DNA of 64,000 nt from Solirubrobacteraceae bacterium (GCA_016463515.1 JAEMRF010000002.1:15081-79080); one strand, 5' to 3'; positions 5,970-34,375 are shown, counted from the first letter of the stretch. Made by a program: numbers and translations. The notes: generated by a model from the sequence alone, not told the origin.

Positions 5970-5983
5970 AGGAGGAGTGAGCC

Positions 5984-6760
5984 ATGACTGGTCAAGATCC
6001 CTTCGTGCCGTTCGGCGAGCAGGCCGTCGCCGTGCAGGGCGGCAACCAGCTCGCTGAGACCAGCGACTACATCGACTCGACTGGGACCACGATCGTGATC
6101 CCCGACGGCGCGGAGCCCGTCGCCGCGGCGACCCGCGAGGAGGGCATCGTCGAGGTCGCCGATGGCTCGCAGTCGATGACGGAATCGCTCGCGGAGACCG
6201 GTGAGCAGATCCCGGGTCTTCCGGCCCGCACCAAGGCGGCAGCTGCGACCGTCGCGGCCAGCGATGTCGTCGCGCGCCTCCAGACGAGCAGCAAGGCGGC
6301 GAACTTCTCGCTGGGCTTCGTCGCGTTCAACGACCGCGTGACGGTCGACCGGCCGATCGTCCCGATCCTCGACATCCCGGCGACCGACGACTTCGACCCG
6401 ACCGCGGCCGGTACCGGCGGCACTTGCATGTACCTCGGCTTGGAGGCTGCGCGCAAGCAGATCGAGCGCTGGCGGCAGGCTCGCCCCGGCACGCTGCACG
6501 TCTCGAATGTCGTCGTCCTGTACGGCGACGGGCTGTGCTCGAACCCGCAGCGGACGCTGCAGGCCGCCGCGGCACTGAAGGAGATCCCGAACGTTACGGT
6601 CGCCGCGTGCCTGTTCCGCGGGCCCCGGGACACGGACAGCGGCGCCCAGCTGCTGCAGGCGGTCGCGAGCGGGCCGCGCTTCTACAAGACGGTCCACGAC
6701 GCCGAGCAGCTGCGCGAGTTCTTCCTCGCGTCGATCACGCTCGCAGGCGGGGGTATCTGA
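5984..6760 (+). CDS. von Willebrand factor A (TerY-like) domain protein.
   Basis: MIDAS motif DGSQS in VADGSQSMTESL, then TGGTCMY and VVLYGDG. An AGGAGG RBS lies 8 nt upstream of the ATG. Confidence 0.85.
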   Translation: MTGQDPFVPFGEQAVAVQGGNQLAETSDYIDSTGTTIVIPDGAEPVAAATREEGIVEVADGSQSMTESLAETGEQIPGLPARTKAAAATVAASDVVARLQTSSKAANFSLGFVAFNDRVTVDRPIVPILDIPATDDFDPTAAGTGGTCMYLGLEAARKQIERWRQARPGTLHVSNVVVLYGDGLCSNPQRTLQAAAALKEIPNVTVAACLFRGPRDTDSGAQLLQAVASGPRFYKTVHDAEQLREFFLASITLAGGGI

Positions 6761-6761
6761 G

Positions 6762-7637
6762 ATGCTGTCGCGGCTCGACATGCACACCGGTGTGACGTTC
6801 ACGGTGTGCAGCGCTGTGGCGACCGCGTCCCCTCGAGGGGCGAGCAGCCAGGACCGGGCGGGCGCGCCGGTGGTCGCCGGCGGCGCGGCGGCGGTGCTCT
6901 GCGACGGCGTCGGGTCTCTCAAGGACTCGTCGCTCGTCGCGGAACTCGCTCTCGCGGCGGCCTGCGACCACATCACCGCGGAGGGGGTCGGGGCGGGGAT
7001 CGTCTCGTGCCCCGGCGTCGCTGCGGAGGCGCTCGCTGGCCACGGCGAGCTCCCCGACGGCGCCACGACTCTGGTAGCGATCGGTGCTGATGAGGACGGC
7101 CACGTCTGCTTCACACTGGTCGGAAACGGCTCGATCTTCGCGATCGAGCCGCTCTCGGTACGCGACGGGCGTGCGCAGCTCCTGTTCGGAGAACTCGCGC
7201 TACCGCACATGGAGATGGTCGGCGCCCAGGCTGCGCTGCGCTCTGTGCTTCCGGCTCAGCACCTCCCGGTGGAGGCGACCGCGGGAGGGCTGCTGCCGCG
7301 TCCCGGCCGGACACGGCTGCTCCTGGCGTGCACCGATGGGATCACCTCGGCGGAGGAGCGCGACCAGATCGGCAAGGTCGAGTCGACCGGGCAGGTGTGG
7401 GCGCAGATGCACCCGCCCTTCGTCGAGGTGCTTGAGGTGCTGAGCACGGCGTGGGGTGACCTGACCCGCGATCCCGGCTCGAGCGAGGCGCTGGAGCGGG
7501 CGCTCGAGTCCGCGCTCGAGTCGTGCGTGGGCCAGGGGCTGCTCGACGACGACGCGAGCGTAGGAGCGGTACTCGTCGCTCCGGTACCCGAGGGGCTGAT
7601 CCCTGAGGACGCCGCCGACGACGAGGCGGCCGGGTGA
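6762..7637 (+). CDS. PP2C-family Ser/Thr protein phosphatase.
   Basis: AAVLCDGVGS, TTLVAIG...LVGNGS, LLLACTDGITS and DDASVGAVLV are PP2C metal-binding motifs. The start is 1 nt after the vWA stop. Confidence 0.8.
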   Translation: MLSRLDMHTGVTFTVCSAVATASPRGASSQDRAGAPVVAGGAAAVLCDGVGSLKDSSLVAELALAAACDHITAEGVGAGIVSCPGVAAEALAGHGELPDGATTLVAIGADEDGHVCFTLVGNGSIFAIEPLSVRDGRAQLLFGELALPHMEMVGAQAALRSVLPAQHLPVEATAGGLLPRPGRTRLLLACTDGITSAEERDQIGKVESTGQVWAQMHPPFVEVLEVLSTAWGDLTRDPGSSEALERALESALESCVGQGLLDDDASVGAVLVAPVPEGLIPEDAADDEAAG

Positions 7638-9148
7638 GCGTCGCGCAGGTCACCTGCGTCGTCGCCGACTGCGCCGCCTTTGCCCGCCACCACCAGATCT
7701 CGCTCGTGGCGGGGGGCAAAGCGATCCAGCTCGCTGGCTCGGGGAGGGGGGGCGGCTTCGCGACGGTCCACCCGGTGCTCGCGATCGGCGGCGCAGCGCC
7801 CGGCGTGGCGCTGGTCGCGAAGGTCTTCAAGGAGAACGAGCTCGCTGACCTTGGCGGCGGGCAGGTCGTCGTCGAGACGCTCACCGGCCTCTGGGGCGCC
7901 CTCGGTGTGAGCGGCCGCCCCGACTGGCCCGAACTCGTCCTCGCACTGCCGTTCCAGCTGCTGACTGTCCAGCTCGACGGGAAGAAGCGATTCGTCGCGC
8001 TGATGCTCGACCTCGGGGCCCGCGGCTACGTCCCTGCGCCAACGTCGCAGAAGGGGGACGTAGCGGCTTACCGCCAGCGCACGCTCGACGAGCGGATCGC
8101 GTTCGCGACGAGCGTCGCAGAGAAACTCGGGCTGCTCGCCGAGTGCGGACTGCTCCACGGTGACCTGAACCCCGACAACGTGATGATCCACCCGAGGACC
8201 CACGACGTGCAGGTGATCGACTTCGACGCCGGTCGCGTGGTCACGACCGGCTCTGAGCGCTCAAGGGTCCCGGGCAAAGGCGACATCTACGTCCCGCCGG
8301 AGGTCAACGATCCGAACGCGCCGCAGGGCTTCGACCTCTCTAGGTTCAGCCTAGAGGCCGAGCGCTGGTCCTACGCGTCACTGATCGGGCTCTTCCTGTT
8401 CACCGTCCACCCTGGGTTCTTCCTCAATGGGATCTCCGCACTTTCGGGATACGCGTCGGCCGCCGACGACTGGCCGGACGTGGATGAGAACGCCGTGTAC
8501 TTTCGCGCCGATGCGCTGACCGCCTACGCCGCGTTCCGGCCGATCTTCGAGATGGTCCCTGCGGAGCTGACGACACTGTTCGCCACGTTGTTCCGCGCCG
8601 GCCCTAACGCGGCTGCCCGTCCGACGGCTCACGACTGGGTTGGAGCGCTCAGCGGGGTGTCCGAGCCGCCGACGATCAAGGTCAGGCTTGTCGGCGACGA
8701 CATCGTGATCGAGGGCGACGATGTCGTGATCGCATGGTGCGCCGACAACGCGCTCTACGTCGAACTCGATCCCGGAGGCCGCCAGCCCGCGACCGGGTCG
8801 ATGACGTTTGTAGCGAAAGAGCACTTCCATGTGCGCGTTGCCGCCGTCAATGCGTTCGGCAGCGAGACGGTCGAGAGCCCGACCGTACGTGTCGTGCCGC
8901 TGCCGAAGATCGAGCGCGTCCGCCTCCCCGTGCCGCCGGCATTTCAGATGCCGGCGCTCTCGATCGCCGCGCAGTTGCCCCGCGGGCTTGTGGACGTGCC
9001 TGCGGCTCAGCCGTACCCGGCGCCGCCGACGTTCGCCCGTTCGTACCGGGGCCCGGCGGAGCAGCCGTCGCCCGAACTCCCGGCTCCGCCTCGCTTCGCG
9101 CGGGCTGGCGGCCCACGCCTTATGGGCTCCAGCTTGAGGCGGCGGTGA
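7634..9148 (+). CDS. Ser/Thr protein kinase-like protein with a C-terminal Ig-like and Pro-rich extension.
   Basis: Catalytic loop LHGDLNPDNVMI, VIDFDAG (DFG-type) and YVPPEV. The start overlaps the phosphatase stop as GTGA. Confidence 0.85.
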   Translation: MSVAQVTCVVADCAAFARHHQISLVAGGKAIQLAGSGRGGGFATVHPVLAIGGAAPGVALVAKVFKENELADLGGGQVVVETLTGLWGALGVSGRPDWPELVLALPFQLLTVQLDGKKRFVALMLDLGARGYVPAPTSQKGDVAAYRQRTLDERIAFATSVAEKLGLLAECGLLHGDLNPDNVMIHPRTHDVQVIDFDAGRVVTTGSERSRVPGKGDIYVPPEVNDPNAPQGFDLSRFSLEAERWSYASLIGLFLFTVHPGFFLNGISALSGYASAADDWPDVDENAVYFRADALTAYAAFRPIFEMVPAELTTLFATLFRAGPNAAARPTAHDWVGALSGVSEPPTIKVRLVGDDIVIEGDDVVIAWCADNALYVELDPGGRQPATGSMTFVAKEHFHVRVAAVNAFGSETVESPTVRVVPLPKIERVRLPVPPAFQMPALSIAAQLPRGLVDVPAAQPYPAPPTFARSYRGPAEQPSPELPAPPRFARAGGPRLMGSSLRRR

Positions 9149-9253
9149 CTTCGAAGTGTGGAGGTAGCCGAAACGCTCGCTCGTCCGGGCATACAAACCA
9201 AGGCTCGCAAACCGCCGCGATAGGGAGCGGCGAGGAACGAGGGGATAGGTCCG

Positions 9254-10702
9254 ATGCAGGCGACGGTCAGCAGGTTCTTTCACTGGCTCGGGGGAATCGA
9301 CTCCGACGTCGTCGCGCGTGTTCCGCGGACGCGTATGCACGGCACCGCGGCGGGCGCGGCCGTGCTCATGGTCGGGGTGATGGCCTTTGCCGCGGGTGGG
9401 TTCTTCGCACGCGAGATGCTGCACCTGCCGGTCGGCGCGGCGCTGCTGGCCGCCGGAACTTGGGCGATGATGATGGTGAGCCTCGATCGGTTGATGCTCA
9501 CGAGCGCCAAGCGGCAGGATCGTACCTGGCTCACGGTCGCGCTCGCGATTCCGCGGATCCTGGTCGCCGTCCTCGCTGGGTTGGCGATCGCGCAGCCGCT
9601 AGTTCTCTTCGCCTTCAGGGAGGAAGTAGCCCGGCAGGTCCAGGAGGATCGTCAGACCGAGGAGACCGCCCGCGTAAGAGCGCTCGACGGTCGGTACGGT
9701 GACATCCCGAAGTTGGAGGCGCAGCAGAATGAGCTCGAGCAGGAGCTCACCAACGGCCCGGACATCACGTTCAAGGGGAACTCGGAGTACGACGCCGCGA
9801 CGGCGGCCTACGACGACGCCCAGGACAAACTCGCGAAGGCCGAGAAGAAGGTCGGCTGCGAGGCACAGGGGACGTGCGGCACCGGCAAGGCGGGGTGCGG
9901 CCCGGTTTGTCAGTCGAACATGCGTGTCGTCGATCAGCGCCGGAACGTCGCCGACAAGGCCAACCGCACGCTGCGTGAAGTTGAGTCGCGGCTGCGCCGC
10001 CAGGGTGCTGCGGCGGCCGACACCGCCCGCCGTATCGCGACGCCGGAACTCGCGCGGGTGAATAGCGCTCTGGCTGACCGTCGTGACGAGATGGAGAGCG
10101 ACCGCGCGGGTATCGCTGCCGACTTCGCGGCACCGGTGGGGTTCATCGATCGGACCCGCGCCCTCGAGCACCTCAAGCAGGAGTCACCAGCCGTGAGGTG
10201 GCGGGAGTGGCTCTTCGCGCTGCTCCTGGTCGCCATCGACACCTCGGCGGTCGTCATGAAGATGCTCGGACTGATCGGCAGGAAGTCGCTCCCCGAGCGG
10301 GTCGAGGAGGAGATCGAGGACCGCGACGTGGAGTGCCTAAAGGTGATCGAGGACGCCAAGGACGAGGCGAACCGCAAGGACGCCGAGCTCATTGAGAAGG
10401 AGGCGGAGATCCTGGTCGAGCTGCGCGAGGAGGCGCTCAGAGAGATGCATCAGGAGACCGCCAAGGTCGAGAAGGAGGTCTGGCGCGCGACGATCGATGG
10501 GTGGGCGAACTCCGTGCGGTCTCAGCTCACGAACAGCAGCGGGTTCGGCCTGCCGCAAGCGCCGCCGGACAACGGCAACGGAGGCGGGCCGCGGGCCAAA
10601 CCGGTCAACGGCAACGGCGCCTACGGGGTTTCGACCCCGCCGCCAGGCCGGCGCTTCCGCGTCCCGCGCAAGAGGCCGTCGGTCCCGCCGCCGGGCCCGT
10701 AG
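9254..10702 (+). CDS. DUF4407-like membrane protein with a central coiled coil.
   Basis: The N-terminus FHWLGGIDSDVVARVPRTR is followed by TM helices, a long charged coiled coil with a CEAQGTCGTGKAGCGPVC cluster, another TM segment and a Pro-rich tail. Confidence 0.7.
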   Translation: MQATVSRFFHWLGGIDSDVVARVPRTRMHGTAAGAAVLMVGVMAFAAGGFFAREMLHLPVGAALLAAGTWAMMMVSLDRLMLTSAKRQDRTWLTVALAIPRILVAVLAGLAIAQPLVLFAFREEVARQVQEDRQTEETARVRALDGRYGDIPKLEAQQNELEQELTNGPDITFKGNSEYDAATAAYDDAQDKLAKAEKKVGCEAQGTCGTGKAGCGPVCQSNMRVVDQRRNVADKANRTLREVESRLRRQGAAAADTARRIATPELARVNSALADRRDEMESDRAGIAADFAAPVGFIDRTRALEHLKQESPAVRWREWLFALLLVAIDTSAVVMKMLGLIGRKSLPERVEEEIEDRDVECLKVIEDAKDEANRKDAELIEKEAEILVELREEALREMHQETAKVEKEVWRATIDGWANSVRSQLTNSSGFGLPQAPPDNGNGGGPRAKPVNGNGAYGVSTPPPGRRFRVPRKRPSVPPPGP

Positions 10703-10780
10703 TCGCACCCAGCCGCGCGGCGGCGCCCTTCCCCTGGAGTCGTTCGCGATCGCGGTTGACCGCGCAGGTATGTTTCAGCC

Positions 10781-13534
10781 ATGTCCGTGGGGGACAGCAG
10801 GTATTGGGACACGTGGGGGCCGAGCGTCGGGTCGGTTGCCACGGACGGGCGCGCCGTCCCGGCGCACGCCACGTTGGCTCGCTACGTGTCACCGCGCGCG
10901 GTCGATGCTGCGCAATTGCTGAACGTTCCGCGGCCGGTCTCAGACGATCAATCCGCTGCCGCCGACCAGGCCCTTGCACGGGCCCTATACGAACGGCTGG
11001 CACTGTTGAAGCTGAGCTACGCTCTCGACCCGCGGATCCCGCGTGGGCTCAGGCGTCAGCAGATCCGACATCCGCAGTGGCTGCTCGCTTTGAAGTGGGG
11101 CACTTGCCTCGACCTGGCCGTGACGTACGCGGGCATGTGCATGTCGGCCCACATCGACCCCCTGCTGATCGTCGGTGAGCCTGTCTCGCTCTTCGGTGGC
11201 GAAGGGCACGCCCTGGTCGCGCTCATCCCCGGCAGGCAGCGCGGCGAGCGAGACCCGCTGATTCTGCCGGGCTGCAAGCCCGAGTACCCAGGAGTCCAAG
11301 TGGTCACCGACGCCGACCGGTTTGCCCGGCTGGTCGATAACGTGCTGCTGCCCGTCGAGTGCACCGGGGCTGTGATCCGCGCGGCGTCCGGACCCGCCTC
11401 AGCCGCGACTACCTCGTTCGCCGACGCGACCGCGGAGGGGGCCGCGGCGCTCGAGCGCCGCGACGTGCGCTGGCGCGTGATCGACGTGGCGTGGCTGCAT
11501 GAGCCCGACCGCGACGGCGTCATCCTCGCACCTCCGCTGGACCCGCCTGAGGGCCTACTTGGCATCGGCTCCTACCTGCCCGGCGGACTCGGGCACGAGA
11601 AGCTGGGCTCGGCGCAGCAGGAGATTCTCGATGAACTGACCGGCGCGACGGGCATCCACGTGATCGCCGCCCACCCGGGCTTCGGCAAGAGCACGATCGC
11701 GCGGCGGCTCGTCGCCAACGCCCCGTTCGGCTCCGGCTGGTTCCTCGGGGCATCTGACAAGAAGACGCTGACCAATAGCCTCGCCGAAGCCGAACTCATC
11801 GGGCAGAACCAAACGAGTGTGGGCCTCGCCGACGCCGATCGCGACGGGTACGCGGAGGCCGCACGAGGCCGCCTCCGCGAGGCAGACCACCCGTGGACCG
11901 TCATACTCGACAACGCCGACGACAAGCCCGACGAGGCCTTGGCGCGCATTCCGCCGACCGATGCGCGGCTCGGCCAACTCGTGGTGCTCACGACGACGGA
12001 CCTCGCGTGGGCCAACGCCAGCGGGCATCGCGTTCACCCGCTGGGCCCGGCTGCCGACAGCGAGGTGGACGCCGAACTCGGCAACTCAGACATCGCGCCG
12101 CTGGTCGCGGGCCGGTGGCTGCTGGTCAGCGCGTTCAAGCACCTGGCTGACGCGCTGGGCGTCAAGCCCAGCCAACTCTCGGTGGACGCCTCAATCGCCC
12201 GCACGGGCGAGAACGGCCCTCTCGCCATCTGGCAGACGGCTCGCGACCAGGTCCTGACGGAGGGCCAGGTGCGCGCGGCGCGGTGCGCCGCGTACCTGCC
12301 CCCGGACGTCGTCAGTGTCGCGGCGGTTCAGGAATGCGCGCCGGGTGAAGGCACAGCCGAGCGCCTGGTCGCCACAGGGCTCCTCGATGTCGCAGCGGGA
12401 GAGCACTTCGGACGTATGCACCGATTGATCGGAAAGGCGATCCGCGACGATCCGGATGGCTCCGACCTGGCCACCCGCGACCACGTCGCGGCAACGCTGA
12501 CCGGCTCCGCCGAGGCGGGCGACAATCTCGCCGAGTTCGGTGATCGTGCGCTCATCCTCGAGATTCTCGCGCTGCTCGAACACCGGTGTCGCAGCGCCCA
12601 GACACCCGATCGCGGGCTCGGGATCAGCCTCCACGCGCTCGGGAGCGTCCTCGAGCTCCGCGGAGCCACACGCGAGGCGGCCGATACCTTCGATACTGCT
12701 CGCGCTCACCTCACCGGCACCACCGACCGACCCCTTCTCGCCGACTGCCTGCTCGGCATGGCACGCCGCCACTTCAGGGACAGCAGCCCGACCCAGGAGC
12801 AGATCGACGAGGCCTTCGCGTGGGCCGACGAAGGCGAGAAACTGATGCAGCTGGCGGGGCTCGGAGCCAGTGCAGGGCGCTTCCTGGCGATGAAAGGGCT
12901 CCTCCGTCGCAAGCGGGGTACGCTCCGCGGCCGACCGAAGGACCAGCAGGTGCGCGACCTCCGGGCGGGGCTCGACATGGTTGAGACGGCCGACCGGATG
13001 CGCGCGGCCGACCCGACCACGCGTCCCGAGGAGCGGGCTCGAAGTCGGTTCAACCTCGCCGGGCCCCGGATCAACCTCGCGCAGCGCGATCCCGACAACT
13101 CGGCGGAACATCTCAGCAAGGCTGAGGAGATTTATCGAGAAGTCCTGCGGCAGCGCGAGGCCTTCTACCCTGGGCTCGACCACCCGCACGTCGCCGCATG
13201 CGTTTCAGGGTTGGCGATGGTCAGTTACTACCGGGCGGTGCTGCTGCCGTCGGACGCTCATGAGCGGCAGCGACTCCTCCGCGAGGCGACGCAGTACGAG
13301 CGCGACGCGGCAGCGCAGCGCGAGCGGCTCGCCGGGAGCCGCGACGACGGCGACGTGGGCAAGTCGCTCCGCCTGACGGCGAAGATCGCAATCGCTCGCT
13401 GGCTGTTCACGGTCGCTTCGGACAAGCGCGCGGAGAGGCACGAGGCGCTCCTGAGCGAGGCCGAGCGTGAGCTTCTCACGGCCGGGCTGCTGCCGTCCGG
13501 TGATGAAGCGAAACTGCCCGCTGAGGCCGCCTAA
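10781..13534 (+). CDS. STAND NTPase: N-terminal transglutaminase-like (papain-fold) domain, NB-ARC-type P-loop, then C-terminal TPR-like repeats.
   Basis: WGTCLDLAVTYAGMC and GEGHALVALIP are Cys/His of the transglutaminase core. Walker A is AAHPGFGKSTIARRL and Walker B is WTVILDNADD. About 450 aa of helical repeats follow. Confidence 0.8.
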   Translation: MSVGDSRYWDTWGPSVGSVATDGRAVPAHATLARYVSPRAVDAAQLLNVPRPVSDDQSAAADQALARALYERLALLKLSYALDPRIPRGLRRQQIRHPQWLLALKWGTCLDLAVTYAGMCMSAHIDPLLIVGEPVSLFGGEGHALVALIPGRQRGERDPLILPGCKPEYPGVQVVTDADRFARLVDNVLLPVECTGAVIRAASGPASAATTSFADATAEGAAALERRDVRWRVIDVAWLHEPDRDGVILAPPLDPPEGLLGIGSYLPGGLGHEKLGSAQQEILDELTGATGIHVIAAHPGFGKSTIARRLVANAPFGSGWFLGASDKKTLTNSLAEAELIGQNQTSVGLADADRDGYAEAARGRLREADHPWTVILDNADDKPDEALARIPPTDARLGQLVVLTTTDLAWANASGHRVHPLGPAADSEVDAELGNSDIAPLVAGRWLLVSAFKHLADALGVKPSQLSVDASIARTGENGPLAIWQTARDQVLTEGQVRAARCAAYLPPDVVSVAAVQECAPGEGTAERLVATGLLDVAAGEHFGRMHRLIGKAIRDDPDGSDLATRDHVAATLTGSAEAGDNLAEFGDRALILEILALLEHRCRSAQTPDRGLGISLHALGSVLELRGATREAADTFDTARAHLTGTTDRPLLADCLLGMARRHFRDSSPTQEQIDEAFAWADEGEKLMQLAGLGASAGRFLAMKGLLRRKRGTLRGRPKDQQVRDLRAGLDMVETADRMRAADPTTRPEERARSRFNLAGPRINLAQRDPDNSAEHLSKAEEIYREVLRQREAFYPGLDHPHVAACVSGLAMVSYYRAVLLPSDAHERQRLLREATQYERDAAAQRERLAGSRDDGDVGKSLRLTAKIAIARWLFTVASDKRAERHEALLSEAERELLTAGLLPSGDEAKLPAEAA

Positions 13535-15435: not shown

Positions 15436-17196
15436 ATGAGGTTCCTCAACCAATCCGACATCACACGCGCCACAGCGTTGGCCGGCCTACTGACGGTTCC
15501 CGTTGTAGTCGCCGCGGGATGCGGTTTCTCGCGGACCGAAGCGTGGGAGTTTCCGGAGACGCGGGTGCAACGTGTGACGCCTCCCAAAGAGCAGGCGCTC
15601 GCGTACGCGACCGGCTCCCAGATCGGAGTCCTGCGCGACGGTCAGACCGCCGTCGTCGGCGAGATCGAGCCGGGCCGGCGGGTCGTCGAGATGAACTGGG
15701 CCGGCGACGGACTCACGCTCGGATGGGTTGAGCAAGACGATGAGTGGCACCGCCATCTCACGGTCGCCGACACCAAGACGGGGAAGAGTCACAGCTATTC
15801 CTATCCGATCGACGATCGAGGACATGGATTCGCGGGCCTTGCTCCCGGATTGCACACCCTCACGGGCGGGAGCTACGGCGGGACGTTCACCGAGTACACC
15901 TCCACGGGAGCAACGCGCAGCTACACGGTCGAGGTGCCTCCAACCGAACTCTCGATAGAACAGGCCGAACAGGACACGACGGACGACATCTCCCCACCAG
16001 GGACGTCTGTCGCGTTCGCCGCGCCGCTCTTCGGGCAGTGGCTGATCGGCGCCGAGAGCGATTCACGCGCGGGCGCGAAGGGCGCGCCTCAGCGCATCTT
16101 CTCCTACGACCCGGCGCGAGCAACGCTCACGCTGGCGGGAGTAGCTGGCTTCAGCGCCTCGGCGCTCCAACGCCGAGACGATACGTCCGCTCTATGGGTG
16201 GAAACGAGCTCTGGCGGGGCGTGCGATTCGTACTACGAGATCGGTGGCTACGGACTGCGCATCCCTGACCTGCCGAAGCTCCGTGCGAAGGGCGACGGAT
16301 ACGACAACTGGGAGATCCGGCGGGCAATCCCGGGCGATGGCCGAATCGACGTCATCGCTCGCGTGCTCCACGGAGGTTGGACTACGGACACCCCACCGCG
16401 ATGCCGGCCCGACACGAGGAGGTTGAGATGGATGACCTACAGCGATGGCGGGTGGCGCGACGTCGAGGACGGACTGGTCGACCTCGGGCTGGCGAACGAC
16501 GGTCGCGTGGCCCGGGTTTATGGGCAGGTTCGCCTCGACGGAGAAGGCCAAGAGGACGATGTGAGGCCGCTCGGCGCCGCCGTCTCCAATCCCGATGGAA
16601 CAGTCGTCAAACTCCCACATGACACGCGGATGGTGCTGTTCGCGCCCGACGCGCCGATGTCGCTCTCGGACGTATCGACTGGCACGACCGACTTGACCGA
16701 GAAGCTCCTTTTCGACGACTCCGGTGCCGGGCCGCTGAAGTTCGGGAGCGACCCTCGTGCACTCCAGGCCGCCACCAGCACGCACCTTCGCTTCGATCTC
16801 GATCGAGGCGGGTGCGGCACCGTAACCGCCCAGGACCCCGACCTGCAGCCGAGTCTCGGCACTACCGGCTACCTGAAAGATGGGAGGCTCGCCTGGCTCC
16901 GCGTCGACGCGCCCAGGGGTACTTCCGATGAGGGTGGCGAGTCGGACGCGGCTGTGCGGGAGGCGCCCGGAACGGCGACGTCGAGAGGCACTCAGGTCGG
17001 CGATTCGGTCGACGCTCTGCTCGAGAACGAAGGAGACCCGGATCGGGCGGACGTCGTTGACGACGACGCGACGCGCTATGTGTTCACGCAAGGTGATCTC
17101 ACACTCGCGGCGCTGGTAGACGCGGCTGGCACAGTTCGCACGCTGTGGTGGCTCCCCGACGGCCGGGCTTCACGCTGCCGAGACGAGGGCGGGTGA
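15436..17196 (+). CDS. Lipoprotein, paralogue 1 (586 aa), probably with a TolB/WD40-like beta-propeller.
   Basis: Signal peptide with lipobox VVAAGC. It aligns with the next gene (LAYATG.../LAYVTA..., WAGDGLTLGW/WSGDGRQLAW, RSYTVEVP/RSYRVTLP). Confidence 0.7.
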   Translation: MRFLNQSDITRATALAGLLTVPVVVAAGCGFSRTEAWEFPETRVQRVTPPKEQALAYATGSQIGVLRDGQTAVVGEIEPGRRVVEMNWAGDGLTLGWVEQDDEWHRHLTVADTKTGKSHSYSYPIDDRGHGFAGLAPGLHTLTGGSYGGTFTEYTSTGATRSYTVEVPPTELSIEQAEQDTTDDISPPGTSVAFAAPLFGQWLIGAESDSRAGAKGAPQRIFSYDPARATLTLAGVAGFSASALQRRDDTSALWVETSSGGACDSYYEIGGYGLRIPDLPKLRAKGDGYDNWEIRRAIPGDGRIDVIARVLHGGWTTDTPPRCRPDTRRLRWMTYSDGGWRDVEDGLVDLGLANDGRVARVYGQVRLDGEGQEDDVRPLGAAVSNPDGTVVKLPHDTRMVLFAPDAPMSLSDVSTGTTDLTEKLLFDDSGAGPLKFGSDPRALQAATSTHLRFDLDRGGCGTVTAQDPDLQPSLGTTGYLKDGRLAWLRVDAPRGTSDEGGESDAAVREAPGTATSRGTQVGDSVDALLENEGDPDRADVVDDDATRYVFTQGDLTLAALVDAAGTVRTLWWLPDGRASRCRDEGG

Positions 17197-17197
17197 G

Positions 17198-18913
17198 ATG
17201 CTGAGCCGGCGAGTTGTGGCAGGTTCAGTGACGGCGGCTCTGATTGCCGGGTGCGGCGGCGGCGACAAGCCGCGAGCGGCCTCCGATGGGAGGCGCGAGA
17301 TCGTGCGGCCTCCCAGCCCTCAGGTTCTCGCGTACGTGACCGCTCGCGCCGTCGTCGTCGAGGAGGCCGGGAAAGACAGGACCGTTGCTCGCGTCAATCG
17401 TGACGACCGCATCGACCAGTTCCTCTGGTCAGGTGACGGGCGACAACTGGCATGGCTGCAGAACACGGAAGAGCCGTCCTACGAACAGTCACTTCACCTC
17501 GTCGATGTCAGGACTGGTGTCGAGCGGACATGGAAGGACGTGTACGGCCTACTCACGCCGAGTCCCCGCGGCGTCGCGATCGGCGCCTACAACGGTCGCT
17601 TCCACGAGTACCTTCCCGATGGCGCTCAGCGCTCATACCGCGTGACCCTTCCCGCCACGCCCAAGCGGCGCAAGGCGCTTGGGCTCGAGCCAGCGTCACC
17701 CGCCCCCTCCACGGAGACGGCGTTCGCAACGCCGATCAACGGTGATTGGCTGGTTCCTGCGCGCCTGACGGGGGCCGGACCCGAAGGATCGAGGTACGAC
17801 CTGGTCGCCTACCGCGCGGACACCGCGAGCACGCGGGTTCTCCGGCCGAGCCGCGGCGAAGCCGGGATCGCTGCTGCGGTCCGCATCGATGACCGCCGCG
17901 TCGTCTGGGCTACCCAGGCCGGAACAGAGTGTGCAGCCGGGAATTCCCTGGCCGGGTATGGCTTAAAGGTCCCGAACCTTCCGGAGTCGATCGGCGCCGT
18001 CTGGATCGTTCGTGAACTATCTGCCAGCGGGGAGTCGGCCGATCTGATCGCTCGTCGCATGAGTTTCCTGCAGGGGTCGGACACGTGCGCATCAACGGAC
18101 GGTGGCCAACGGACATGGTTTCACCTCCGGAGAGGGAAGTGGCAGCAGCGTGGCGAGGGTGTGGCCGACGTGGCGGTCGCTTCCGACGGGCGGATCGCCC
18201 GCGTGAATGGCACCGTGCCTAGCGGCAAACTGGACGTTGGCCTGGAAGCGGACGAACTGGCATACGGCAGCGCGTGGCTCGAGCCCGTGGGTGGCGAGCG
18301 GACACCGCTACCGAAGGGAACGAGGGCGGTCGCATTCTCTCCGGCGTCGCCAATGACGTTGCGCACTACGGTGGGCGATGGGCCAGCGCTCACTTCGCGG
18401 GCGGTGCTGACGCCGTCCGGGGTCGGCGCGCTCCAGCTCGGGCGTTCCCTTGCGAGCATCCGGGCAGCGACGAGCACTGCTCTGACGACGCTCTCTCGGA
18501 ACGGGCGGTGTACGGAGATCCGCGCCACAGACCTGCGTCTCGACAACCGGCTCGGGGTCCGCGGCACGCTCGTCGACGACACGCTCGAAGCGCTCTCGGT
18601 CACCACGCGCGACACGAAGATCGATGATGAGGATGACTACGGGATCGGTGATCTGCAGCCGGGCGTGAAGAAGGTGGTACCCCGCGGGCCACGGACCTGG
18701 CGAGGCGTTCGGGCCGGGGACGCGCTCAACGATCTCGTGGCCGCTCACGGCATGCCCGCTCGCCGTACGACGAGATCCAGACAGGGCGCTGTCGAGTACG
18801 AGTACCAGGTGAAGGGCGGGCTTCTTGTCGCGCGTGCGGACGCGAACGCGACGGTCCGGCGGATCGATCTGTTTCGCGGCGGCACGGCGCCGTCCTGCGC
18901 GGCCCGCGACTAA
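17198..18913 (+). CDS. Lipoprotein, paralogue 2 (571 aa).
   Basis: Lipobox LIAGC. The start is 1 nt after the upstream stop. It is paralogous to 15436-17196. Confidence 0.7.
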   Translation: MLSRRVVAGSVTAALIAGCGGGDKPRAASDGRREIVRPPSPQVLAYVTARAVVVEEAGKDRTVARVNRDDRIDQFLWSGDGRQLAWLQNTEEPSYEQSLHLVDVRTGVERTWKDVYGLLTPSPRGVAIGAYNGRFHEYLPDGAQRSYRVTLPATPKRRKALGLEPASPAPSTETAFATPINGDWLVPARLTGAGPEGSRYDLVAYRADTASTRVLRPSRGEAGIAAAVRIDDRRVVWATQAGTECAAGNSLAGYGLKVPNLPESIGAVWIVRELSASGESADLIARRMSFLQGSDTCASTDGGQRTWFHLRRGKWQQRGEGVADVAVASDGRIARVNGTVPSGKLDVGLEADELAYGSAWLEPVGGERTPLPKGTRAVAFSPASPMTLRTTVGDGPALTSRAVLTPSGVGALQLGRSLASIRAATSTALTTLSRNGRCTEIRATDLRLDNRLGVRGTLVDDTLEALSVTTRDTKIDDEDDYGIGDLQPGVKKVVPRGPRTWRGVRAGDALNDLVAAHGMPARRTTRSRQGAVEYEYQVKGGLLVARADANATVRRIDLFRGGTAPSCAARD

Positions 18914-21900
18914 CTGCTGGGTCCGCGGCAGGCGGATCGGTAGCGAGGCAGCGAGTCCTTCACCACCGAGTACCACTCGGCCGGCTTCAGCGTGCGGCGC
19001 AGTCGATCGCATATCTCTTGGCTCCAGGCCTCCACTCCGAGCCCGCGGACCCTGACCGTCCCGTCGTCACCGGGCAGAGTCGCCATGCGGCCTCCACGTG
19101 CCGCGACGTCGACGGCGCCGCCGCCTGCAAGTTCACCCAGGAGATCGAGAGACCTGTCTGAGGTGTAGACACGCGTTGAGCGCGGATCCGCGACGACGAG
19201 GTGGCGGCCGTCGGGTGTCCACTCCACCGCCTGCGAGGCATGACGGAGTTTCGTCGGCTCTGCGATCACGCGAGGCGTGGCGCCGGAGATGTCGAGCAGC
19301 GCCAACTCCGCGCCGACGCCGGCGACGGTCGACGAACCTGGGCGCCGGGCCAGATCCAGGAATCCTGCGTCCCGAAACGCGACCGTCTTGCCGAGCGGCC
19401 GCAGGTCCCGGCCCAGTGTTCGCAGAGTTGCTGGACTCCCTCCGACGATGCTGGTGGCAACGAGCAGTCGACTGTCAGACAACCAGGTCAGCGCCGAGAC
19501 ATCCAGATCCTTTAGGTCCTCGTTCCACCGGAGTGTCTCGGCGTCGAGCGTCACGACGCCGGTTTCCGAGAACGCGCCGACAGCGAGCGTTCGCCCGTCC
19601 GGAGACAACGCGAGTGCGTTGATCTGGTCGGGGAACGTCTGGCTTTCGGTCGGCGTGGTATCCGTGTTCTCGAGGTCAACGCGTGCCACCCTGCCGGCAG
19701 CCCCGGCGACCCACGCGACTGTGCCCCTCGGATCGACGGTCACCGCTCTGATGGCGAATCCAAACGGCAGTTCGATGACACGGTCCCGGTCCGGATCGTC
19801 CAGGTCGACCAGCCCGAGCTTTCGCTCCGCACCGACCACCAACCGATTGCGCTGCGCGGCCCACGCGATCCTGCGGCCGCCGGTCGCGCCTGAGTAGATG
19901 ACTGAGCCAGGAGTCCGGCCGTCCAAAGGCATGACTTGCACCTGTCGCTCGTCCGCCACGGCGAGCCGGTCGAGTGCGCGATCGACGGCCAATGCCCGCC
20001 ATCCGCGAGGGATGACGGTTGCGCCTGACACTTCGGTGCGAGCCGAGACGATGGCGGCGTCCGTGTCACCGGCGACCAGCACCGCATCAGTGCCGTCGAT
20101 CCGCGCCACCAGCCGGACCTTCCAATCCAGAGGGACGGTTCGCACGGAGGTCCAGCGGGTGCCTTTGATGCGCGCAACCTCGACTCCGCGTTCGTCCTGG
20201 GTGATGCCGACGTAGCGTCCCGCTCCATCGGACGTGACAGATCGGCGCACCTGAGCGCCGCCGGTTCGGCGAACGGGAGTTGTCTTGCCGGTGGCAAGAT
20301 TCGCGGTCACGAGTCGGTACTCGCGCCTGCCGTCCGTGAGCAGCAGTAACGGTTCCTCAGAGTCGGGCTTAGGAAGCACGAGCGCATCGTCGTCGCTGTC
20401 GAGGTCGTGCCAGCGGATGCGCCTGAACTCGGGACCAGCGATAACCCCAGCCCGGCCCTTTCCTCCGACGACGATGTGCCGCTCGTCAGCGGTGAACTCG
20501 GCGTCGTTGATCCCGGCCGTCTTGAAGGTGACGACCGCCGATGAGCCCAGCCTACGTATCTCAAGCGATCTGTAGTCGCTCGTCGCCAGCCATTTCCCCC
20601 CGCCTTCTGAGAGCCCGATGCCGCGCACGCGCTCGAAGGGCCGAAAGACCTCCTGCTCATCGGCTTGACGACCATCCGTGGCCAGGAAGGACTCGATGGT
20701 CCCAGGACCGCCGACAAGCAGCCGTCCCGCGCCGTCGAAGCCGAGCTCGCTGGGTGGCCAGCCGGGCCTAATCGTGGTCGACCGCTCGTTGGCGCCTTTG
20801 TACACGCTCAGGAACTTGCTCATCGCGTTGTCGCTCGGCATGACCACCTGCTCTTCGACTCGCAGGAGAGACGCGAGGTCTGGATCGGTGTTCTTGAGCC
20901 GCGCCTCGGCGGCATCTATACGTCCCGGGAGAGCCCGCTGCGCCGCTGGCAGCGGATCGGGACGGACCTGCTGCCAAGTGACGAACACCGCCGCAAGTAC
21001 CGCGACCACAAAGGCCCCGATGGTCTTGACCGGCCACGGATCGCGGCGGAGGGCGGCCGCGAGCGCCGCGTCGACCGACTTGACCTGCGTGAGGGGCACA
21101 TCGTCCCGAAGCCCGTCGATGTCCTGTTCCTGATCGCCGGCGAGCAGGAGCATCCGCATCTGGGCGAAGTACTGGCGGCGCAGCTCGCTGCGCTCATCAG
21201 GCGACAGCTGACGCTCGGGCTGAGGCGTGAGCTTCCCCAACAAGCCGCCAACGGCCCGGGTGTTGCCGTCGCTGTCGATAGCGGCAGTGGCACCGACGCC
21301 TCGGTCGAGCGGGTTACCGTCGAGCCTGTGCCGCCGCCGCAACACGAGCTTGACTCGCTCGGCGCGCCCGGGCTGGCGGGTCGCCGCGCGCGCGGCGATC
21401 GCGAGGGCCAAGCCGGCGCTGTTGCCGCTCAGCGAGTCGGTGAAGTGGGGCGTTTCCCCCTTCTTGTCGACGTGCTTCAAATCCTGCAGTGCGTAGCGGA
21501 GTGGCGCTCGCGAGCCGCCTTCGCGTGAACTCAGGTAGGCATCAACGGCAGTCTCCATCGCACGCCAGTCTTGATCTCGCGGGGCCAGGACGCCGTCGAG
21601 ATCCTCGTGGATGCCGGGTGCCAATCCATCGCGCTCCGACACCTTGACTCGGAGGAGTTGGCCAGCGGTCTGCGACGCATTGGTCGTCGGGAACAGCATC
21701 ACCGCGCTCTGTCGGGGATCGGCTGTACGGTTCGTGAACCGCGCGGCGGCGTCGGCGAGCGGAGCAAGACGCGCCGTGGGCCACCGCTCGCAGACGCGTG
21801 CGAGCTTCGCCTCAGCGTCCTCCGGGGCGCTAATGGTCCCGAGTTCAATGAGCGCGTCCGCCTTGTGGACTTGTCGTTCGCTCCAAGTCTCGATGGCAGC

Positions 21901-22131
21901 CGCCAGGTGGTCGGCGCGGTCGGAAGCGTCGACGGCGCACGCCAGCGCGACGGCTGCGATTGCCTGGGCACGGCGAGCGCTTTCCGGGACTCTGAGCTCG
22001 ATAGCTTCGATCTCGGCTGAGGAGCCGTAGGCGTGATCTTGGAGAGTTTCCAGATCGCCCTCGGCCACGGCCCGGTCGCAGGCGAGCAGAAACCCGCCGT
22101 CGATCAGCGCGCTCGCGCTAGGACGCGCCAT
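18910..22131 (-). CDS. Large membrane protein: N-terminal helical region plus a Lon (S16)-like Ser-Lys protease domain, one TM helix, and C-terminal WD40/TolB-like beta-propeller repeats.
   Basis: DSLSGNSAGLALAIAA (compare Lon GPSAG) and AVGGLLGKL (compare Lon IGGLKEKL). TM helix IGAFVVAVLAAVFVTW. Repeats include SPDGRTLAVG and WTPDGRHLVV. Confidence 0.8.
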   Translation of the reverse strand: MARPSASALIDGGFLLACDRAVAEGDLETLQDHAYGSSAEIEAIELRVPESARRAQAIAAVALACAVDASDRADHLAAAIETWSERQVHKADALIELGTISAPEDAEAKLARVCERWPTARLAPLADAAARFTNRTADPRQSAVMLFPTTNASQTAGQLLRVKVSERDGLAPGIHEDLDGVLAPRDQDWRAMETAVDAYLSSREGGSRAPLRYALQDLKHVDKKGETPHFTDSLSGNSAGLALAIAARAATRQPGRAERVKLVLRRRHRLDGNPLDRGVGATAAIDSDGNTRAVGGLLGKLTPQPERQLSPDERSELRRQYFAQMRMLLLAGDQEQDIDGLRDDVPLTQVKSVDAALAAALRRDPWPVKTIGAFVVAVLAAVFVTWQQVRPDPLPAAQRALPGRIDAAEARLKNTDPDLASLLRVEEQVVMPSDNAMSKFLSVYKGANERSTTIRPGWPPSELGFDGAGRLLVGGPGTIESFLATDGRQADEQEVFRPFERVRGIGLSEGGGKWLATSDYRSLEIRRLGSSAVVTFKTAGINDAEFTADERHIVVGGKGRAGVIAGPEFRRIRWHDLDSDDDALVLPKPDSEEPLLLLTDGRREYRLVTANLATGKTTPVRRTGGAQVRRSVTSDGAGRYVGITQDERGVEVARIKGTRWTSVRTVPLDWKVRLVARIDGTDAVLVAGDTDAAIVSARTEVSGATVIPRGWRALAVDRALDRLAVADERQVQVMPLDGRTPGSVIYSGATGGRRIAWAAQRNRLVVGAERKLGLVDLDDPDRDRVIELPFGFAIRAVTVDPRGTVAWVAGAAGRVARVDLENTDTTPTESQTFPDQINALALSPDGRTLAVGAFSETGVVTLDAETLRWNEDLKDLDVSALTWLSDSRLLVATSIVGGSPATLRTLGRDLRPLGKTVAFRDAGFLDLARRPGSSTVAGVGAELALLDISGATPRVIAEPTKLRHASQAVEWTPDGRHLVVADPRSTRVYTSDRSLDLLGELAGGGAVDVAARGGRMATLPGDDGTVRVRGLGVEAWSQEICDRLRRTLKPAEWYSVVKDSLPRYRSACRGPSS

Positions 22132-23185
22132 GCTTGAGCGCGCTGGCTACAGCAGACTGCTGGCCGCCGGTCGGCAGTGTGTCGGCAAGCTCGTTCCAGC
22201 GCTGCGTGGCGGCGCTGTGCCCACGCGCAGCTCTAACGCTCATCTCCAAGTGAGCTGGATCGGCCTGCTCCAGCGCTGGCAGGGCGAGGGCGGCCACGCT
22301 CACCTCGAACTCAAGTCGGCTTCGACCCCTGAACTGATGACTTGTGCTGTGCAGCGACGCGTTGCCCTCGCACCCATTGCGAGTCCGAAACAGAGGGACG
22401 TACAGGACGCCGAGCCCCTCGATCTTGAGGGCCGCCATCTCAGCGGTGGTGGATGTCCACGGGATGAACGTCACCGTGTCCTCCACCGGCAGGATTTCGA
22501 CGATCAGCCGCGGGTCGGGGTCGGGCTCGTAGGGCGGGAAGACCAGCTCTCGTACGCGAGGTGATGCAGCATCTGCGGCGTCGAAGAAACCACTGCCACT
22601 TGCGGCTTGAAGTGCCGGTCCGCTGAACTCGATCGAGCCGAGGATGGTGGTCCCTATCTGCTGGATCGCCGATGCCGCGCGATCCAGGCGGCTTGGCGGC
22701 GAGGGCTCAACGATGCTCGCGTGCTCGACGGGCCACGGCTCGTCTGGGAAGAGAACGTTCCAATCTCCACGAAGGTGGGACAGGCGCATCTCTACGTCAC
22801 CCAGCTCGTCGTCGGGGGCCAGGACCAGCATCATGTCGTAGTGCTGGATCTGTGACTTGAGCACCGCAAGCAGGAAGGGGTGGCTGGACGCGAGTTGCTC
22901 TTGGTTCCACAGGTCGCGGAACGCCGGGGTCGTCACCACATCCGGGTCGGTGTAGAGATCGGTGTCGCCATCCTGGCTCTGGAAGAGGCCGACTCGCCAC
23001 TCGGCCTTCGCGTCGATTGATTCGCCGGCGTGGAGACCGGCCCACGGAGGCGCGACGACGAGCCATCCACCGCGGGTCGGGGCGAGAAGCACTTCTCCGC
23101 GGCCCACCCAGGCCGGGACGGGCTTGAACTCTGCCTCGCGGGGAGCGAGTGCGGCGATTAGGTCTGAGTTCTCGTCAAGTGTCAT
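22118..23185 (-). CDS. Hypothetical protein (355 aa), overlapping the start of the Lon-like gene by 14 nt.
   Basis: An internal ATG (MTLDENSD) was chosen because the upstream extension is Arg-rich junk. Composition is acidic and coding-like. Confidence 0.6.
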   Translation of the reverse strand: MTLDENSDLIAALAPREAEFKPVPAWVGRGEVLLAPTRGGWLVVAPPWAGLHAGESIDAKAEWRVGLFQSQDGDTDLYTDPDVVTTPAFRDLWNQEQLASSHPFLLAVLKSQIQHYDMMLVLAPDDELGDVEMRLSHLRGDWNVLFPDEPWPVEHASIVEPSPPSRLDRAASAIQQIGTTILGSIEFSGPALQAASGSGFFDAADAASPRVRELVFPPYEPDPDPRLIVEILPVEDTVTFIPWTSTTAEMAALKIEGLGVLYVPLFRTRNGCEGNASLHSTSHQFRGRSRLEFEVSVAALALPALEQADPAHLEMSVRAARGHSAATQRWNELADTLPTGGQQSAVASALKHGAS

Positions 23186-23289
23186 CTGCTCGTGGCGACT
23201 GGAGTGCCGCTTGTAGTATCCCGCGCCGAGTCGATCATGCTCGCGTTCGTCGGCGCGTCCGGCTCCGACACTCTTTGATCGAACGTTGC

Positions 23290-24636
23290 ATGGCGCCCTC
23301 CTGGAAGACAATCCTCGCCGAGTACACGAGTTCCGTTCACGACAGGAGCGGCTGGACCGGTCCGCAGCCAGACGAGGAGGAGCTTCACGCGTCCCTGCTT
23401 GATCGGTACGGAAAGATCGGAGCCGAAGACCTGTGCGCGCTCGACCGGTTGGTCCGCGCGATTGGTTCTGCCAGCCCGCCGTCCGTGGTGACTCGCCCAC
23501 CCCTCGCGGAAGTCGCGAGACCAGACCGGGCGCCTGACGCGGCGATCATCAACAACCTGGGAGGACGCGATCACCCGAAGCTCGTCGCTACGCTCATCGC
23601 ACGCGACATCAGCGGCGGCAGCTACATAACTTCGGTCTTCTGTCACGGGCGCGCCGGCAACGCCGTTCGGGCGAAAGGGGTGACGAGGCGCCTCAAGGCT
23701 GAGGCCGCGAATAAGGAGGAGCCGCAGGCCCTGCCGGAGGGGCCGTATGGCACTCAGATGTGGCTTGAAGGCGGTCCCCGTGAGCGGCTCGCCGGGTGGG
23801 CACTCGCCACCCCCGCAGAGGTCTACCCCGAAGCGCTCGGACCCGTCCTGAAGGGGACTGTCGATGACCCAGAACACGCGGACCATTGGGCGGGGCCTGT
23901 TCCGAACCACGGGTTGCAGGTCGAGCCCGGCGGTTTGATCCTGTCTCAGCTCGAGCACATCGGGTGGGCGGAAGCCGCGCGACGGGTGAACGCCCCTGGC
24001 GGATTCGCGCAGCCATGCACCCAGTTGCCGCTCTTGGTTGATTCGGTTCCCTGGGGGTTCTCGGACGAGGACCCCTATGTGCCCCTGGGCCACTGGCACC
24101 CGGGCTTGGATCCGGAGTTCATCGCCCACATCAGTGGCCTGAGACGCCCGTGGGCCGCCATGGCGTTCACGTTCGCCGAGCGCGAGAGCGCTCACTTGGA
24201 CCGGATTACACATGCTGAGCATGGAAGCGGACATGACCTGGTCTCGAAAGTCTGCCGCGAACTCATTGCTGGCCGGGTGGATCCGGTGCCGGGCGTCGAA
24301 GTCGAGAACAAGGCCGCCGCGTGGTGTCTCGTCGGGCCGTTCACGGTTGATGACAGCCCCGTGGCGGCTGACATGTTGGTGACCCTCGGGACAAAGGAGC
24401 AGCCTCTTGCTGCCTGGTTGATCGCGACGTCGCTGTCGGCCGACGAGCGGACTCTCCTGGCGAACTGTGCGGCCCGGCACCTGTGGCGCGGGCGGGTCGG
24501 AGACGCGCTGGCCCAGGCCCTTTCGGACAAGCACGAACTTCACAAGGTTCGAGCGAAAGAAGAGCCTGTGCGCGCGTTCGTCCGCGCCATGGTGTGCGCG
24601 GGCGAGGCGTGGTGCGCCCTCGGCGCGGCGTCTTGA
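23290..24636 (+). CDS. Hypothetical protein (448 aa).
   Basis: It starts at the internal ATG (MAPSWKTIL) and is divergent from 22118-23185. I recognised no motif. Confidence 0.6.
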   Translation: MAPSWKTILAEYTSSVHDRSGWTGPQPDEEELHASLLDRYGKIGAEDLCALDRLVRAIGSASPPSVVTRPPLAEVARPDRAPDAAIINNLGGRDHPKLVATLIARDISGGSYITSVFCHGRAGNAVRAKGVTRRLKAEAANKEEPQALPEGPYGTQMWLEGGPRERLAGWALATPAEVYPEALGPVLKGTVDDPEHADHWAGPVPNHGLQVEPGGLILSQLEHIGWAEAARRVNAPGGFAQPCTQLPLLVDSVPWGFSDEDPYVPLGHWHPGLDPEFIAHISGLRRPWAAMAFTFAERESAHLDRITHAEHGSGHDLVSKVCRELIAGRVDPVPGVEVENKAAAWCLVGPFTVDDSPVAADMLVTLGTKEQPLAAWLIATSLSADERTLLANCAARHLWRGRVGDALAQALSDKHELHKVRAKEEPVRAFVRAMVCAGEAWCALGAAS

Positions 24637-34336: not shown

Positions 34337-34375
34337 TCGGTACCGCGCCGCGTGTGATGGCATGATCGGCATACC

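Follow-up and report, generated by a model that had tools for sequence, protein, structure and literature searches.

What does a bacterium gain from a protein with the fold of a Lon-type protease on one side of a membrane helix and two beta-propellers on the other? The question is raised by a locus in a Solirubrobacteraceae bacterium (GCA_016463515.1, JAEMRF010000002.1:15081-79080), of which 64,000 nucleotides (nt), hereafter the window, were analyzed. Positions are counted from the first letter of the window unless another locus is named. Between positions 15436 and 23185 lie two tandem lipoprotein genes, a gene for a 1073-amino-acid (aa) protein, here called the big protein, and a further gene directly upstream of the latter. 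This module is a rare, conserved four-gene set of soil actinobacteria. We propose, with a probability of about one half, that it builds a single-pass transmembrane (TM) proteolytic receptor in which a sensor gates an ATP-independent Lon-type protease. No annotation was found for any of the four protein families. The original prediction, made from the sequence of the window, had named no characterized equivalent, and a full-text search of the published literature found no paper on a fusion of a Lon-type domain with a TM helix and propellers.

Organization of the module

The first lipoprotein gene, lipoA (15436-17196, + strand), encodes a 586-aa member of paralogue group A, and lipoB (17198-18913, +), which starts 1 nt past the lipoA stop, encodes a 571-aa member of group B; both were called from the open reading frame (ORF) and its coding bias. 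The big gene (18910-22131, - strand) begins with an ATG at 22129-22131. The upstream gene (22118-23185, -) encodes a predicted cytoplasmic protein of 355 aa and ends with a TAG at 22118-22120, and its stop falls 14 nt within the start of the big gene. At the other end, the stop codons of lipoB and the big gene overlap convergently by 4 nt (18910-18913). The coordinates and lengths of the genes and both overlaps are present as originally read. All four ORFs follow the coding pattern GC3 > GC1 > GC2 for the GC content of the third, first and second codon positions, with GC3 at 0.75-0.78 versus GC2 at ~0.5, in a window of ~68% GC.

A Lon-type proteolytic domain in the N-terminal part

Relatives of the big protein were sought by an exhaustive phmmer search of 1.84 billion representative proteins with residues 1-367 as the query, and just five real ones were found (P0002-P0006). 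Four of them are ~1060-1085 aa long, and P0006 is a 723-aa truncated call on a 3.5-kb contig. A further candidate, the ankyrin protein P0007, was rejected as a compositional false match. Word-indexed homologue searches with the big protein and with the lipoprotein alignment returned only the queries themselves, and one with the alignment of the C-terminal tail came back empty, probably because they were swamped by Ala/Gly/Arg-rich words.

Single-sequence scans with Pfam, NCBIfam and PADLOC gave zero matches in residues 1-400, and phmmer of the big protein against the PDB gave weak WD40 matches only. A profile of the family was then built from the N-terminal regions of six sequences and run against the PDB, where it matched 29 Lon-family chains and essentially nothing else. 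The E-values were 1e-5 for MtaLonC, 8e-4 for the protease domain of Archaeoglobus LonB (AfLonB) and 0.02 for E. coli Lon; M. jannaschii Lon and RadA (5h45, E 0.035) were also among the matches. The alignment spans the segment from the catalytic Ser to the catalytic Lys, and Ser238 (codon 21418-21420, -) and Lys300 (codon 21232-21234, -), both checked on the sequence, pair with Ser582 and Lys625, the catalytic residues of MtaLonC.

The predicted structure agrees with the profile. An AlphaFold2 model of the N-terminal part, based on the six-sequence alignment, reached a predicted local distance difference test score (pLDDT) of 85 and a predicted template-modeling score (pTM) of 0.86. In this model, eight helices at residues 13-132 are followed by an alpha/beta domain at 138-361. 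These correspond to an all-helical domain of residues 1-132 (21736-22131, -; pLDDT ~90) and the Lon (S16) proteolytic-domain fold of residues 133-352 (21076-21735, -), the latter assigned by profile and structure matches. The best 50 Foldseek matches of the model in the PDB were all Lon proteolytic domains, including the LonB structures 3k1j and 1z0c, and the match to E. coli Lon (1rr9) had an E-value of 5e-8 and a template-modeling score of 0.73 normalized on the target.

Conservation within the family is concentrated at the dyad. Ser238, Gly240, Ala242-Leu243-Ala244 and Lys300 are invariant in the alignment, although overall identity is only ~35%. Likewise, the motifs around Ser238 (LSGNSAGLALA) and Lys300 (VGGLLGKL) are kept in seven of seven full-length homologues at overall identities of 27-47%. 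They correspond to the dyad motifs (D/E)GxSAG and GGxxxK of the Lon proteolytic domain. Profile and model together establish a Lon S16 fold with a Ser-Lys dyad, although not formal Pfam membership. The Lon S16-like context that the original prediction saw around Ser238 and Lys300, and for which it named a profile search as the check, is thus borne out: the profile finds Lon proteases in the PDB across this segment, and the model agrees.

A Lon-like domain need not be a protease. In RadA/Sms it serves as an oligomerization or binding module, and the big protein could similarly be a pseudo-protease scaffold, that is, a non-catalytic receptor or anchor. The presence of RadA among the sequence matches is in keeping with this, as are the sub-threshold match to Pfam Lon_C and the incomplete retention of the Thr that supports the catalytic Lys. 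However, Ser238, Lys300 and the SAG(L/M)ALA and G...K motifs remain invariant while the rest of the domain is at ~35% identity, and selection on catalytic residues would be expected to leave a dyad fixed amid such drift. Moreover, the best matches by sequence and by structure are active proteases and not RadA. We consider a scaffold role very unlikely.

If the domain is a protease, it would act without ATP-driven unfolding. The Pfam and NCBIfam scans gave no AAA or P-loop match, and the Walker A motif GxxxxGK[ST] is absent from residues 1-365. Ahead of the protease domain lies just the 132-residue helical domain, for which neither Pfam nor the PDB gives a sequence match. Since there is no unfoldase, the Lon domains appear suited to cuts at exposed sites rather than to degradation in bulk. 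Two cysteines of the helical domain, Cys18 and Cys114 (codons within 21790-22080), are invariant across all homologues and are candidates for a metal, redox or structural site.

Transmembrane helix, propellers and topology

The big protein has a single TM helix at residues 368-386 (20974-21030, -), with a Kyte-Doolittle hydropathy of 2.09 and a helical structure in the model. No second hydrophobic segment is found in the protein; the helix had first been placed at 369-386. It is followed by a conserved juxtamembrane linker of residues 387-450 (20782-20973, -) with the motif LPxKxD...DPDL...VxP, three low-confidence model helices, a mean pairwise identity of 37% and 10 invariant positions. Residues 451-1030 (19042-20781, -) are modeled as two tandem ~7-bladed beta-propellers. 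The AlphaFold model of residues 360-1073, made from five sequences, runs from the TM helix through the three juxtamembrane helices and ~58 beta-strands, which fall in the 580-residue propeller region, to two short terminal helices.

The best Foldseek matches of this model are tandem seven-bladed WD40 propellers, namely Aip1 (1nr0), EML1 and Pwp2/UTP proteins, with E-values of 4e-15 to ~1e-14 and alignments over 650-720 columns. Propeller families of the WD40 type in Pfam match residues 706-895 with E-values of 2e-6 to 1e-2, all below threshold. A double WD40-type beta-propeller is thus supported by the structure model. The original prediction had described ~685 extracytoplasmic residues of WD40/TolB-like repeats. 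The WD40 type agrees with the model, and the location outside the membrane is argued for below, but membership in the TolB family was rejected. Neither Pfam nor NCBIfam gave a TolB or PD40 match in the big protein or the lipoproteins, and there are no tol or pal genes nearby that would provide a Tol-Pal context.

The two propellers differ in conservation. Propeller 1 (residues 451-740) is the least conserved domain of the protein, with 25% identity versus 34% in propeller 2 and 34-50% elsewhere, as expected of a ligand-facing part. The most conserved segment is the C-terminal tail of residues 1031-1073 (18913-19041, -), which has a mean pairwise identity of 50%, two short model helices, the pattern AWSQxxCDRxRRxLxPAxW...PxYRxxC and the invariant Cys1041 and Cys1068.

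Several features suggest that the Lon domain is cytoplasmic and the propellers are outside. No signal peptide precedes the N-terminal 365-residue domain, and a domain of this size without a signal peptide stays in the cytoplasm. Lys and Arg are richer on the N-terminal flank of the TM helix than on the C-terminal flank in six of seven homologues. The number of cysteines after the helix is even (2 or 4) in every homologue, whereas that in the N-terminal part is odd or variable, and the putative lipoprotein partners carry four invariant cysteines beyond that of the lipobox. The reversed topology, with the Lon domain outside, was rejected, as it would require export of the 365-residue domain without a signal peptide and runs contrary to the charge and cysteine patterns. 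The disulfide part of this argument would be weaker if the two-cysteine tail also occurred in cytoplasmic STAND-WD40 proteins.

Paired lipoproteins

LipoA and LipoB are full-length paralogues with 30% identity (E 1e-51), which confirms the tandem paralogous pair of the original prediction. LipoA has a signal peptide and the lipobox VAAGC with Cys29, and LipoB has the lipobox LIAGC with Cys19 and an SRR motif within its signal peptide. The lipobox cysteine of both, first noted in the boxes AAGC and IAGC, is invariant in all ten aligned lipoproteins of the family, together with the four further cysteines, and an [AGS]-[GA]-C box is also present in four copies from Solirubrobacterales. The public protein collection has LipoA as a protein of 540 aa (P0008) that starts 46 codons later and lacks the signal peptide and lipobox (15436-15573). 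The longer ORF is supported, since the lipobox is conserved in ten homologues.

The fold of the lipoproteins is less clear. Single-sequence scans with Pfam, NCBIfam and PADLOC gave nothing useful and no match to the LpqB, RcsF, NlpE or Pal/OmpA families. A W-x-G-D-G motif is nearly invariant. It had been called TolB-like; the motif itself is real, but it comes with no TolB family match, and the resemblance to propeller proteins is weak, with a match of a single N-terminal blade of LipoA (E 0.004). A weak blade-level profile match also links the lipoproteins to the last blades of the big protein (69% probability).

In a neighbor-joining tree, the A and B types form separate orthologous clades with bootstrap values of 99 and 72, and the duplication predates the split of the lineages of the window and of three related loci (L001, L002 and L004). 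The pairs from Solirubrobacterales cluster with each other (bootstrap 96). Two copies are retained in every lineage. The B-type signal peptides carry a twin-arginine pair in the n-region (MLSRRVV, MRRAMVL, SGRRWGT, MRRLAAL; window 17198-17260, L001 7340-7384 (-), L002 11530-11574 (-), L007 11734-11800), which is mostly not present in the A type. From these sequences, the B paralogue may be exported by the twin-arginine translocation pathway.

Envelope scaffolds made of a propeller and a lipoprotein, such as TolB-Pal, are known, and the propellers and lipoproteins of the module could be a Tol-Pal-like scaffold and not a sensor. The big protein would then be a constitutive LonB- or FtsH-like protease for envelope maintenance or quality control, removing misassembled proteins of the membrane or the cytoplasm. 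Its intact Lon fold and dyad would suit such a role, as would the position of the module between housekeeping genes in the window, and membrane-bound Lon proteases are known (LonB; PMC3391209). However, folded substrates could not be processed without an ATPase or unfoldase, and a core envelope function would be expected to be far more widespread than five relatives in 1.84 billion representatives. There are also no TolB/PD40 or Pal/OmpA family matches, and a dedicated, overlapping gene for a cytoplasmic partner better fits a specific substrate or adaptor. For these reasons, a housekeeping protease seems quite unlikely.

Co-conservation and the upstream gene

The contigs of the relatives were compared by all-against-all BLAST. 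Three further loci, in metagenome-assembled genomes (MAGs) of Solirubrobacterales, came from a genome scan with the lipoprotein alignment as the query; the same scan with the big-protein alignment yielded no loci, and a metagenome scan added just a near-duplicate of L007. The lineages counted are the window, L001, L002, L003, L004 (with the near-identical L005 and L006), L007 (with the near-identical L011), L008 and L009. All four components occur in every lineage with enough flanking DNA, that is, in eight lineages, some of them Solirubrobacterales MAGs. Each complete locus holds the big gene, a homologue of the upstream gene and two lipoprotein homologues of ~570 aa. Seven lineages have the lipoprotein pair in convergent orientation to the big gene. 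In L004, the pair lies upstream on the same strand, and the gene order has thus changed while the linkage is kept. Loss of co-conservation had been named as an observation that would speak against the original prediction; the genes are instead linked in all eight lineages, including the rearranged one.

Homologues of the upstream gene lie directly 5' of the big gene in L001, L002 and L004, where the overlap is 4 nt and not the 14 nt of the window, and in L003, L007 and L008. The protein is soluble in the window, where it has no TM segment, and in L001, L002 and L004. In the Solirubrobacterales clade (L003 9259-9993; L007 16673-17503 (-); L008 16676-17719 (-)), it is a shorter protein in which two predicted TM helices precede the conserved C-terminal domain. 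Because the number of helices is even, this domain would still be cytoplasmic. Similarity to CalpT, MazF, anti-sigma factors or toxins was not detected in the upstream protein with Pfam or the PDB.

Two further genes stand near the upstream gene in some loci. In L003, a gene for a 74-aa membrane peptide lies just ahead of it. A fifth conserved gene of ~310 aa is found upstream of the module in L001 (487-1434), L002 (4769-5692) and L004 (8125-9072); the window lacks it. The N-terminus of its product (LRRLRRGDEDAFAEV...) is reminiscent of region 2 of extracytoplasmic function (ECF) sigma factors. The idea of a sigma factor, based on the ECF-like start LRRGDEDAFAE, was dropped, as there is no Pfam or PDB match and the gene is absent from the window.

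Proposed mechanism

Starting from the architecture, the invariant dyad and the gene linkage described above, the activity, substrate and signal of the putative receptor protease may be pictured as follows. The propellers and the lipoprotein pair would form a surface sensor outside the cytoplasm, with two propellers and two lipoproteins that may pair off singly. An external change, for instance the binding of a ligand or a lipoprotein contact gained or lost, would act on clustering or conformation by way of the juxtamembrane helices and the TM helix, whereupon the Lon domains would become competent to cleave a specific cytoplasmic target. This target is most likely the upstream protein; alternatively, the N-terminal helical domain of the big protein itself could be released by self-cleavage. 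In either case, the cleavage would start a downstream response.

A number of points weigh against this proposal. At the protease domain, Pfam Lon_C gives no score for the window protein, which thus falls short of the gathering threshold; only two of six family members reach this model individually, with a best E-value of 0.005 that is itself sub-threshold. At the position of the Thr that helps to place the catalytic Lys of canonical Lon, only some members have Thr or Ser, and others have Ala. For the sensor, the model of the C-terminal part has only moderate confidence (pLDDT 70, pTM 0.52), and the window copy itself is neutral with respect to the positive-inside signal. Because they converge on the big gene, the lipoprotein genes are not co-transcribed with it. 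As for the candidate substrate, the N-terminal half of the upstream protein is not conserved, conservation being confined to the C-terminal ~130 residues, and the protein has no recognizable fold or domain and no match in Pfam, NCBIfam, PADLOC or the PDB. Finally, sensing by the propellers and lipoproteins and cleavage by the Lon domain are inferred from sequence, models and analogy.

A broader claim is more tentative, with the odds somewhat against it. The module may represent a class of one-component receptor protease previously unrecognized in bacteria, in which the tandem-propeller sensor and the lipoprotein pair directly gate the Lon-type protease, and a single cut in a co-encoded partner relays a surface event such as contact with a phage, epibiont or competitor, or envelope damage. 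It would then be a membrane-spanning counterpart of CalpL that needs no second messenger or kinase. Bacterial TM signaling is known mainly in the form of kinases, chemoreceptors, anti-sigma cascades and regulated intramembrane proteolysis. If true, a receptor with its own cytoplasmic Lon-type protease would be a different wiring principle, and it would extend the finding from CalpL that Lon domains without an ATPase are precise signaling switches and not bulk degraders. The module is small, with four genes, and self-contained, and its catalytic residues are clear to mutate, which makes the idea directly testable. Through it, four so far unannotated protein families also gain a fold assignment and a working hypothesis.

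Comparison with known systems

CalpL is the nearest characterized analogue. This SAVED-Lon fusion, once activated, cleaves the co-encoded CalpT and thereby starts a response (10.1101/2021.12.06.471393; 10.1101/2024.05.08.593097; PMC12751052). Like the proposed receptor, CalpL, which works with CalpT and CalpS, is an ATP-independent Ser-Lys Lon protease fused to a sensor, its specific substrate is encoded alongside it, and one defined cleavage frees a downstream effector. However, CalpL is soluble and senses intracellular cyclic tetra-adenylate (cA4) through SAVED, whereas the sensor of the big protein would be the tandem propeller beyond the TM helix together with the two lipoproteins. Pfam gave no match to SAVED or CARF domains in the big protein, and CalpL is absent from the PDB sequence matches of the family profile.

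Among the classical Lon families, MtaLonC of Meiothermus taiwanensis (PDB 4fw9; PMC3391209) is the best profile match and shares the Lon fold and the lack of ATP-powered unfolding. It differs in keeping a large degenerate AAA-like module within a soluble hexameric chamber, whereas the big protein has a helical domain of only ~130 residues, is anchored in the membrane and has a 685-residue part past it. Archaeal LonB also places a Lon proteolytic domain at the cytoplasmic face of the membrane. Its TM helices, however, lie within a functional AAA+ domain and it has no extracytoplasmic domain, whereas the big protein has no ATPase, a TM helix after the protease domain and a large putative external sensor. 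The big protein is thus outside LonA, LonB, LonC and CalpL, being without the defining features of each, and is kin to the sensor-fused, ATP-independent Lon-type proteases.

Lipoproteins that assist TM sensors are familiar from other systems. In the RcsF-IgaA, NlpE-CpxA and LpqB-MtrB pairs, a membrane-anchored lipoprotein partners the external domain of a TM transducer. LpqB is an actinobacterial lipoprotein of ~580 aa that contains a propeller. The outputs of these systems are kinases and phosphorelays, whereas that of the module would be a protease. The lipoproteins of the module, in contrast to RcsF, NlpE and LpqB, are an obligate paralogous pair and belong to none of those families.

Propellers have also been proposed to detect threats at the cell surface. 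In Actinomycetota, EsrA is such a threat sensor, with a surface beta-propeller (PMC13622651). The module resembles EsrA and the Aravind-type conflict systems (PMC7159879) in that a variable surface propeller of the WD40 class is proposed as a detector of threats from outside. The Esr system differs in that it signals through MoxR, vWA, kinase and FHA proteins, and EsrA is a secreted filament. In the module, the propellers are fused by one TM helix to a protease, and there is no nucleoside triphosphatase in the conserved set.

Genomic neighborhood

Several gene groups in the window belong to conflict or mobile-element types. A run at 5984-13534, just ahead of the module, resembles the Aravind-type ternary conflict systems and comprises a vWA gene (5984-6760), a PP2C phosphatase (6762-7637), a kinase-like protein with a weak match to the TCAD9 'ternary complex associated domain' (7634-9148), a DUF4407 protein (9254-10702) and a 917-aa P-loop/TPR STAND-like protein, the N-terminus of which matches the anti-phage ProA model with an E-value of 4e-7 (10781-13534). 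At 33230-40209, a C5 DNA methylase (Dcm), HATPase_c_3, DUF4420 (PD-(D/E)XK) and a 969-aa Z1-domain protein stand in a row and look like a methylase-linked restriction or defense cluster. A gene that resembles a type IV coupling protein, with TrwB/TraG/TraD domains (4407-5969, -), suggests that an integrated conjugative element may lie toward the left end of the window.

This setting invites the question whether the module is itself a defense device against phages, epibionts or competitors. In such a device, the propellers would detect the invader, and a Lon cut in the upstream protein would release a toxic or growth-arresting activity, as in abortive infection. A very rare and patchy distribution would fit, as would a GC3 in the module (0.75-0.78) below that of the flanking genes (0.80-0.87), the wealth of conflict and mobile-element genes in the window, the transposase that adjoins the module in L004 and the variability of propeller 1. 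Both precedents, CalpL and EsrA, are immune or threat systems. On the other side, PADLOC-DB has no match for any of the nine proteins of the region. The flanking genes differ from locus to locus, and several of them are housekeeping genes (pgeF and tyrS in the window; Ku and LigD in L003). Pfam and the PDB offer no toxin-like domain in the upstream protein, and no diversification mechanism, such as repeats of the type found in diversity-generating retroelements, was found near the big gene. On balance, a dedicated defense function seems unlikely.

Some minor observations concern the surroundings of the module. No Rfam RNA is present, and no genes of clustered regularly interspaced short palindromic repeats (CRISPR) systems were seen at the loci of the relatives. 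In 15436-24636, which covers the module and a divergent gene of 495 aa, the third-position GC is 0.75-0.78 and that of the flanking genes is higher, at 0.79-0.87; the lower value is compatible with horizontal acquisition of the module and the 495-aa gene. In L003, which lies on a 1.7-Mb contig, four tandem paralogous genes of ~205 aa, which had no family match and are 57-92% identical to one another, stand upstream of the module at 5233-7888.

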